IMG/VR virus record: IMGVR_UViG_2713896788_000030
DNA: 5,751 bases
Source of the DNA: a virus
Lineage: Duplodnaviria > Heunggongvirae > Uroviricota > Caudoviricetes
Direction: 5' to 3' (one strand)
Shown here: one piece after another, positions 4,223-4,482 of the stretch
Layout of the letters: each line of letters begins with the position of its first letter
Position numbering within the stretch: position 1 is the first letter of the stretch
Translations under genes and position numbers: made by a program
The notes under the pieces: generated by a model
Databases searched by the model: none
Seen by the model: only the letters and a program-made list of their open reading frames with translations
What the model was told of the DNA's origin: nothing

Positions 4223-4436
4223 CGGCGTTTCTCTTTTGCTCTCTGTAGGGGTGAATAGAGTTTATCCGATTTCTCGCTGTAGGGGTACACGAGAACCACC
4301 GAGCCTGATGTGGTTAAAAGACAGGCATACTAATAAACACTGCACTGTGTATTCATTCCAACGAGTGAATACACTGAGCAATGTCGCTCGTAACTAAACA
4401 GGAGCCGACTTGTTCTGATTATTGGAAATCTTCTTT

Positions 4437-4462
4437 GCCCTCCAATGTGAGGGCGATTTTTT
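4437..4462 (+). terminator. Intrinsic terminator (tL-type) in the PL operon upstream of ea10
   Basis: Hairpin GCCCTC-CAATGT-GAGGGC (4437-4454) followed by GATTTTTT (4455-4462). Confidence 0.6.
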
Positions 4463-4482
4463 ATCTGTGAGGATATGAACAG

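Follow-up and report, generated by a model that had tools for sequence, protein, structure and literature searches.

The sieB-ea10 Spacer of the Stx1 Prophage VT1-Sakai as Lambdoid Regulatory DNA with sas and PreS Homologues and a Matched Pair of Repeats

Introduction

By comparison with what has been described in phages P22 and lambda, we analysed the spacer between sieB and ea10 in a viral DNA stretch of 5,751 nucleotides (nt), IMG/VR record IMGVR_UViG_2713896788_000030 (Caudoviricetes), which is called the window at its full length; the spacer occupies positions 4223-4482. The closest system to its left half is the sieB/esc pair of P22 with the antisense RNA sas, reportedly described by Ranade and Poteete in 1993. 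According to reviews, sas switches translation from SieB to Esc, which lets the phage escape its own exclusion system. In the P22 record BK000583 a promoter is annotated for sieB, with the RNA starting at the A of ACCCCTACAG, 31 nt 5' of the ATG, and the antisense RNA (P22A-sas) is available as a 127-nt sequence obtained by RNA-seq in a 2026 study (PMC13397905).

The closest system to the right half is the lambda small RNA LPR1, since renamed PreS, an Hfq-bound RNA encoded between ral and ea10 whose 3' end is the terminator tL2a. It is seen at about 88 nt and, after processing, at about 68 nt, appears in the lytic cycle only, raises dnaN translation in support of phage DNA replication, and is present in 2,537 genomes (bioRxiv 10.1101/2024.10.31.621285).

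The whole window was 100% identical to VT1-Sakai, the Stx1 prophage Sp15 of Escherichia coli O157:H7 Sakai. Our best explanation takes the spacer for a standard regulatory region of lambdoid type, compact and read differently on its two strands, with the sieB promoter on one strand, sas and PreS on the other, and ral absent; we give the whole of this explanation a probability of about 0.85. Its components are those of ordinary lambdoid regulatory DNA: a promoter that has been mapped in P22, two small-RNA genes that have been described and a terminator that has been named. The ral module, which is optional, is missing. An earlier sequence-only reading of the same letters overlooked the two small RNAs on the pL-sense strand, known from relatives as P22 sas and lambda PreS/LPR1. 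The Stx1 prophage of O157 Sakai holds unannotated copies of these two functional small RNAs and no ral, and PreS, reported to boost phage DNA replication via host dnaN, could bear on induction and toxin output. What is new here are the matched repeats across related phages, the placing of the cassette before unrelated genes, and the strand-biased hairpin, the other parts of the spacer being of already known kinds.

Results and Discussion

The sieB Promoter and the sas Antisense RNA

The left half is identified, by sequence identity to P22, as the sieB promoter on the minus strand and a predicted sas-type antisense RNA on the plus strand, which is the pL direction. The features on which this section rests are the following.

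4223-4252, minus strand: inferred sieB 5' untranslated region of 30 nt, starting at the A at 4252, first base of ACCCCTACAG; transferred from P22 BK000583
4243-4252, no strand: proximal direct repeat CTGTAGGGGT; the inferred sieB mRNA begins with the complement of these 10 nt
4259-4264, minus strand: -10 of PsieB, TAAACT, corresponding to the 3' end of the P22-annotated promoter feature
4277-4286, no strand: distal direct repeat CTGTAGGGGT; it shares positions with the P22-annotated -35 region of the minus strand (4284-4289)
4218-4327, plus strand: sas-like antisense RNA, 107/111 identical to the first 111 nt of P22 sas
4271-4295, plus strand: sas hairpin UUCUCG-C-UGUA-GGGG-UACA-CGAGAA, a predicted fold with the distal repeat in its 5' arm and loop
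4296-4326, plus strand: conserved element CCACCGAGCCTGATGTGGTTAAAAGACAGGC of 31 nt, the 3' domain of sas and the most conserved part of the sas segment

The window is near-identical to P22 across the annotated sieB promoter and RNA start. A promoter for the divergent sieB-like gene had been among the functions proposed for this spacer from sequence alone, and this is supported by the likeness to P22, where the corresponding region carries the experimental annotation. The product of sieB, a 193-amino acid (aa) open reading frame (ORF), is 85% identical to P22 SieB, and Met25, the start of Esc in P22, is conserved. The same sieB gene, promoter and leader sequence, antisense segment, both repeats and 3' element are found in P22, whose downstream neighbour differs and whose sas enters the ral module with its last 17 nt, missing in the window.

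The published 127-nt sas maps exactly onto the P22 genome. By its match to the window at 4218-4327, both direct repeats lie inside sas; the 3' end was set at the end of the conserved element, and the true end may lie up to about 17 nt beyond. The 5' end lies opposite codon 2 of sieB, and the RNA is complementary to the start codon, the ribosome-binding site and the whole leader. The Esc ATG (4150-4148) is 68 nt outside sas, so it is not covered. Covariance models of Rfam run over 4218-4482 with E values up to 10 gave no match.

The direct repeat CTGTAGGGGT had been noticed in the sequence-only reading, with the second copy correctly placed and the first at 4241-4250 instead of 4243-4252. It occurs exactly twice in the window, at a chance expectation of 0.01 and with two copies in 0/200 shuffles, and reaches 17 nt when two mismatches are allowed.

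The PreS Homologue, the Upstream Hairpin and tL2a

The right half contains, again by alignment, a PreS/LPR1 homologue at 4376-4463, predicted to be Hfq-dependent.

4376-4463, plus strand: PreS/LPR1 homologue of about 88 nt, 87/88 identical to lambda 34,011-33,924 with no gaps; a processed form of about 68 nt would start at about 4396
4435-4462, plus strand: intrinsic terminator tL2a, 3' end of PreS, with stem 4435-4456 and T-run 4457-4462; the HK620 annotation tL2A lies on the same sequence
4347-4374, plus strand: 12-base pair (bp) hairpin GUGUAUUCAUUC-CAAC-GAGUGAAUACAC, ending 2 nt before the PreS +1; identical in lambda and other relatives

The cloning primer P810 (GAGCAATGTCGCTCGTAACT) gave the position of the PreS +1, and the primers used for the M1 mutagenesis gave that of the seed (bioRxiv 10.1101/2024.10.31.621285). 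The sole difference from lambda is A4445, in the terminator loop, and the seed region is identical, including the CUG at 4415-4417 that was changed in M1. The copy lies within the limits of the PreS paper (at least 92% identity and at most 3 gaps to lambda LPR1). It folds (z = -3.85) with the seed region open between a hairpin at the 5' end and the terminator. In both phages PreS lies in the early-left operon directly upstream of ea10, with the same seed and terminator stem; the lambda copy is between ral and ea10, whereas in the window, where ral is absent, the upstream neighbour is the sas cassette, about 48 nt away.

The inverted repeat GTGTATTCA / TGAATACAC was found with the 10-nt spacing previously given to it, one nucleotide away from the positions first assigned (4347-4355 / 4366-4374). 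In the RNA the pairing grows to a stem of 12 bp (4347-4358 with 4363-4374) capped by a CAAC loop. For the segment 4330-4482 the folding energy was -49.5 kcal/mol (z = -5.1), a value equalled in 0/200 shuffles. The terminator, also noticed before, is borne out as the stem at 4435-4456 followed by T6 at 4457-4462. The hairpin is conserved together with PreS in more than 400 phage records, the P22 homologue of PreS being without it. This hairpin may serve to fix where PreS begins, or to give stability to the RNA on its 5' side. An RNA processing structure, another of the functions proposed from sequence alone, is plausible: both repeats fall within sas, and the hairpin adjoins the start of PreS.

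Two relatives are worth recording for this half. P22 has, upstream of gene 17 (L007, about 470-585, minus strand), a diverged PreS homologue with conserved 5' hairpin and seed (GTTCTGGTTATTGGAG) and a terminator of its own; it is missing from the ten P22 small RNAs of PMC13397905. In HK022 (L137, about 490-1530) sieB and the sas cassette are absent and the PreS sequence is kept. The loop of its inverted-repeat hairpin is interrupted by about 1 kb of inserted DNA, on either side of which ATTCCAA is repeated; the insertion looks like IS903.

Absence of ral and the Module Junction

The alignment to lambda proposed in the sequence-only reading was carried out, together with ev017 and 2G7b, and the spacer turned out to be the lambda sieB-ea10 interval less one block.

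4328-4331, no strand: module junction, linker TACT; the lambda counterpart is a 340-nt block, 34,395-34,056 (orf28, ral and the ral tail)

It had been suggested that ral is absent and that the spacer holds no ORF of its size, and both suggestions held. The ORFs present are of 60 aa (TTG start), 39 aa and 31 aa; between sieB and ea10 there is none of some 66 aa with homology to the Ral of lambda or P22, and a tblastn search with both Ral proteins against the whole 56.5-kb VT1-Sakai record gave a best E of 0.29, the positive controls giving 1e-25 to 1e-44. The difference from lambda is a clean one of modules.

The junction is identical in HK446 and 1 nt different in HK620 (TACG), both of which have another opposite-strand gene, and the form without ral occurs in a dozen lambda-like phages at 99.6% identity, beside siblings that contain ral. 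Among 5,426 complete E. coli genomes, 933 contain no less than 80% of a 121-nt query that covers the junction, a count that pools one-piece with two-piece (ral-containing) matches. A simple deletion of lambda between GGCA microhomologies was considered and rejected: its product would be 6 nt longer than observed, which argues for an alternative module junction and not a recent deletion of the lambda arrangement. The arrangement without ral is a common alternative module junction and no private deletion.

Given that ral is missing, that the spacer sits at a mosaic boundary and that in different phages divergence sets in right after the conserved element, the repeats and the hairpin might be taken for functionless remnants of the event that deleted or replaced ral, and a scar of the mosaic junction was one of the readings offered earlier. 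The 4-nt linker, however, falls clear of both repeats and of the hairpin; all three are present nearly base for base in lambda, ev017 and 2G7b, which contain ral; and the repeat architecture is kept across prophages of Enterobacterales with quite different neighbours. The remnant explanation is contradicted by the junction position and by the ral-containing relatives, and we assign it next to no probability. The sequence-only reading had also envisaged that the repeats are ordinary lambda sequence devoid of a role; ordinary lambda sequence they are, but not devoid of a structural or regulatory role.

A small unannotated protein gene in place of ral is also highly improbable. There are indeed ORFs of 60, 39 and 31 aa overlapping the spacer, but the best candidate, the 60-aa ORF at 4215-4397, begins at a TTG inside sieB and crosses the module junction, so that in lambda it is split by 340 nt although its flanks are otherwise conserved there; it has no similarity to Ral, and conservation in the region follows the RNA hairpins and the known small-RNA boundaries, not a reading frame.

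Survey of the Conserved Element and Its Cassette

A degenerate pattern for the 31-nt element was run on IMG/VR and on a set of bacteria with one genome per species. The element was present in at least 120 IMG/VR contigs and gave at least 120 matches among the bacterial genomes; the matches listed include Escherichia, Salmonella, Klebsiella, Enterobacter, Citrobacter, Proteus, Providencia, Morganella, Xenorhabdus, Photorhabdus, Pantoea, Edwardsiella and other Enterobacterales. Matches in Limnohabitans/Comamonadaceae were discarded as chance, showing a repeated GC-rich context that resembles coding sequence.

At most loci among the matches listed, a gene on the minus strand starts 36-41 nt or 66-75 nt from the element. 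The cargo genes are mutually unrelated, and include the SieB family, the BssS family, small zinc-ribbon-like proteins and several without Pfam match. In the short form a single hairpin lies between the ribosome-binding site of the minus-strand gene and the element, whose complement reads TTnACC-N16-TGGTATnnT, an extended -10 promoter. The window, lambda, P22, HK620 and Rac have the long form, with two direct repeats at a spacing of 33-35 nt. Of 66 two-repeat variants, 43 place the hexamer that most resembles a -10 (A at position 2, T at position 6) between the repeats, 5-9 nt upstream of the complement of the proximal one. A sas-type hairpin is present in 54 of the 71 unique variants among the matches listed, with 34 distinct basal helices.

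Of 76 variants, 65 had the more stable hairpin on the plus strand and 9 on the minus strand (mean -7.8 versus -5.7 kcal/mol), which is explained by the many stems that depend on G-U pairs. This bias indicates that the conserved structure is that of the RNA made in the pL direction, that is, of a sas-like antisense RNA. Twelve related loci searched at the Rfam gathering score gave no family over the element. Within it, one pair covaries, in the GCCUG/CAGGC stem (UA 19, GC 3, UG 2); for a pseudoknot of CCAC/GUGG with GCCUG/CAGGC the pair counts are uninformative, 8 of the 9 pairs being fixed by the search pattern; a CCAC/GUGG stem longer by two flanking pairs was rejected as inconsistent across variants. 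Two other models of the element were also dropped: a put-like antiterminator RNA as in HK022, whose pL leader is unrelated in sequence, and one of a nut-like pair of sites, the element being present only once in the prophage.

From the survey, the cassette appears to be a portable promoter-plus-antisense module controlling many different prophage accessory genes, and that the P22 sas mechanism of 1993 is apparently no one-off. No earlier description of a family-wide cassette or of the matched repeat evolution reported below was found in the literature.

The Rac prophage of E. coli K-12 (L138, 5380-5700) is a close parallel, with sieB on the opposite strand and a two-repeat cassette whose element is a variant with the stem changed on both sides (GCCCGG/CCGGGC). 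Its proximal repeat is CTGTAAGGGT (one mismatch) and its distal repeat CTGTAGGGGT. About 60 nt past the element comes the Hfq-associated small RNA KilS, which ends at a terminator before the next gene in the pL direction, and which by pairwise alignment has no evident similarity to PreS. A KilS-like sequence (TTGCTGTGTGTAGTC...) also follows the element in the IMG/VR contigs L010, L042, L099, L102 and L124.

Other observations on the survey were the following. In phage LLS (L136, about 1500-1700), as in L045, L068 and L110, the element is without a nearby opposite-strand gene; in LLS it lies in the early-left leader, just 3' of the repressor gene and of a promoter-like site with repeated sequences, and the region examined has no annotated N gene. 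Genes for the small RNA DicF were seen 200-600 nt downstream of single-hairpin cassettes (L021, 1671-1722; L029, 9459-9510), which places the cassette also in Qin-like operons of the dicB type. The exact lambda sequence over the region was met in short contigs, most of them below 2 kb (L179, L180, L201, L202, L205, L214 and others), from assemblies of Nocardioides, Lacrimispora, Chromatium, Vibrio, Paenibacillus and Enterococcus, and likewise in L188 (Shewanella, a 48.5-kb contig at about 1x coverage); lambda sequence in assemblies of such unrelated taxa looks like contamination with lambda DNA.

Matched Evolution of the Repeat Cores

Taking the 40 unique two-repeat variants, the two 10-nt cores of one locus differ at a mean of 0.23 positions, 31 pairs being perfect, while cores of different loci differ at 4.2 of 10 and the 16 flanking positions at 10.95. 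These near-random flanks argue against a recent duplication of the repeats. When proximal and distal cores of 12 representatives were re-paired, the observed match was reached in 0/20,000 permutations, a figure that is descriptive only, the loci being related. At least eight versions of the core exist, each in both copies: CTGTAGGGGT, TTGTAGGGGT, GTTGTTGGGG, TTGACTGTGG, TGACTGTGGG, TGCATTGGGG, GTTGTGGGGG and TGCTGGGGAG.

A protein that recognises the repeats would be one way to keep them equal. The class CTGTAGGGGT was found with N proteins of lambda, P22 and phi21 type, with different repressors and with unrelated cargo proteins, which argues that none of these is the co-varying partner; as for a host protein, it is disfavoured by the presence of different core classes in a single host genus or a single genome. 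A co-evolving partner protein of phage or host is therefore unlikely. The same data bear on the more specific proposal that the direct repeats are DNA sites for a regulator of PsieB, at the -35 region and +1, their matched change reflecting co-evolution with that protein. It has in its favour that the repeats do lie at the -35 and the +1 of the mapped P22 promoter, 34 bp apart, that the -35 hexamer is poor and could suggest dependence on a factor, and that the cores stay identical while their flanks diverge. It would have to accommodate one class of core with several N types, repressors and cargo proteins, and several classes in one host genus or genome, and also the stem of the distal-copy hairpin, which keeps its pairing through G-U on the plus strand only, as expected of RNA and not of duplex DNA. 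Operator sites fit the strand bias and the partner survey poorly, and we judge them improbable.

Both copies are complementary to roughly the first 10 nt of the sieB mRNA, the proximal one being the same DNA. The distal copy repeats the proximal sequence within the 5' arm and the G-rich loop of the sas hairpin and so is also complementary to the mRNA 5' end; in the short form it is the hairpin loop itself that lies opposite the predicted mRNA 5' end. We propose tentatively, at odds somewhat short of even, that the distal copy is a recognition site presented by the hairpin, with which sas would begin to pair with the 5' end of the sieB mRNA. Cis-antisense RNAs that initiate pairing by a loop are CopA/CopT of R1, RNAI/RNAII of ColE1 and P22 sar/ant. 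As in those RNAs, a stable hairpin offers a short sequence complementary to the target beside a longer full complementarity. The window differs in that the sequence presented by the hairpin is outside the overlap with the target and matches it only as a duplicate of the cis-complement, a duplicate that has been kept matched over evolution.

Joining the survey with the matched repeats, the sas cassette may belong to a large uncurated family of pL-sense antisense RNAs of Enterobacterales prophages, in which a hairpin and the 31-nt element face the 5' end of an accessory or exclusion gene on the opposite strand. The matched pair would then define at least eight specificity groups, deciding which superinfecting phage switches off which resident exclusion gene. 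This whole proposal is speculative, and we would sooner expect it to need revision than to stand as worded. Since the cores evolve in step, the way in which such antisense RNAs find their targets can be put to a concrete test by mutation.

Proposed Working of the Spacer

In the lysogen, with pL off, PsieB (minus strand, with its leader at 4223-4289) would produce the sieB mRNA, and from it SieB and Esc. Upon induction or infection, polymerase modified by N would transcribe from pL antisense through sieB into the spacer, and the sas segment would accumulate and pair with the sieB leader and start codon, blocking SieB but not Esc. Considering that sas is complementary to the start of SieB but not to that of Esc, SieB would be turned off while Esc is still made, and the phage would not exclude itself, as in P22. 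Transcripts that end or are processed at tL2a would give PreS, which with Hfq may act on host mRNAs such as dnaN, and read-through beyond tL2a would allow ea10, cIII, kil, gam and bet to be expressed. Each step is carried over from P22 or lambda by identity, and on that basis expression, processing and function are expected in this prophage.

Several points weigh against the explanation as a whole or against its parts. The ends of sas and PreS in VT1-Sakai are transferred from P22 and lambda, and the sas 3' end may differ here, the last 17 nt of the RNA-seq sas of P22 lying in the absent ral module. The promoter scan of the plus strand predicted none upstream of 4218 (sas) or 4376 (PreS). Regarding the distal repeat, the minimum free energy fold loops out only its GGGG and leaves the remainder in the stem, so a kissing contact would require the upper stem to open; and 5 of the 7 transition mismatches between cores still permit a G-U pair with the mRNA, where chance gives about half, which does not discriminate. 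Covariation within the 31-nt element is weak, most of its bases being fixed by the search pattern.

The only promoter-like site on the plus strand was found at 4107-4135, a sigma-70-like CTTACA-17-TATAAT (10/12) inside and antisense to sieB. It was rejected as the sas promoter: the RNA would span the Esc start codon, and the -10 is weaker in P22.

Gene Context of the Prophage

The gene order along the window is N (3352-3624), sieB on the opposite strand (3641-4222), the spacer, ea10, cIII, kil, gam and bet. The only real Rfam match in the window was Lambda_thermo, the cIII thermoregulator, at 4911-4969 (plus strand, 88.5 bits), which confirms the plus strand as the pL direction.

4469-4473 and 4483-4485, plus strand: ea10 ribosome-binding site GAGGA and start codon, from the sequence, the ORF list and the annotation

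Between ea10 and cIII, a terminator-like hairpin at 4875-4894 (plus strand) matches the annotated tL2B of HK620 and is followed by the cIII thermoregulator. Within the O gene, positions 224-273 are 50 N (masked or unresolved) and adjoin the iterons of ori (TCCCTC...GAGGGA repeats, about 40-170). Between cI and pL, in the place of lambda rexA/rexB, there are two plus-strand ORFs, 2000-2281 (93 aa) and 2288-2839 (183 aa, with a hydrophobic C-terminal stretch). The VT1-Sakai record annotates only the latter (H0053, hypothetical protein), the 93-aa ORF being without annotation, and the two could be a candidate uncharacterised exclusion or defence pair expressed from the prophage.

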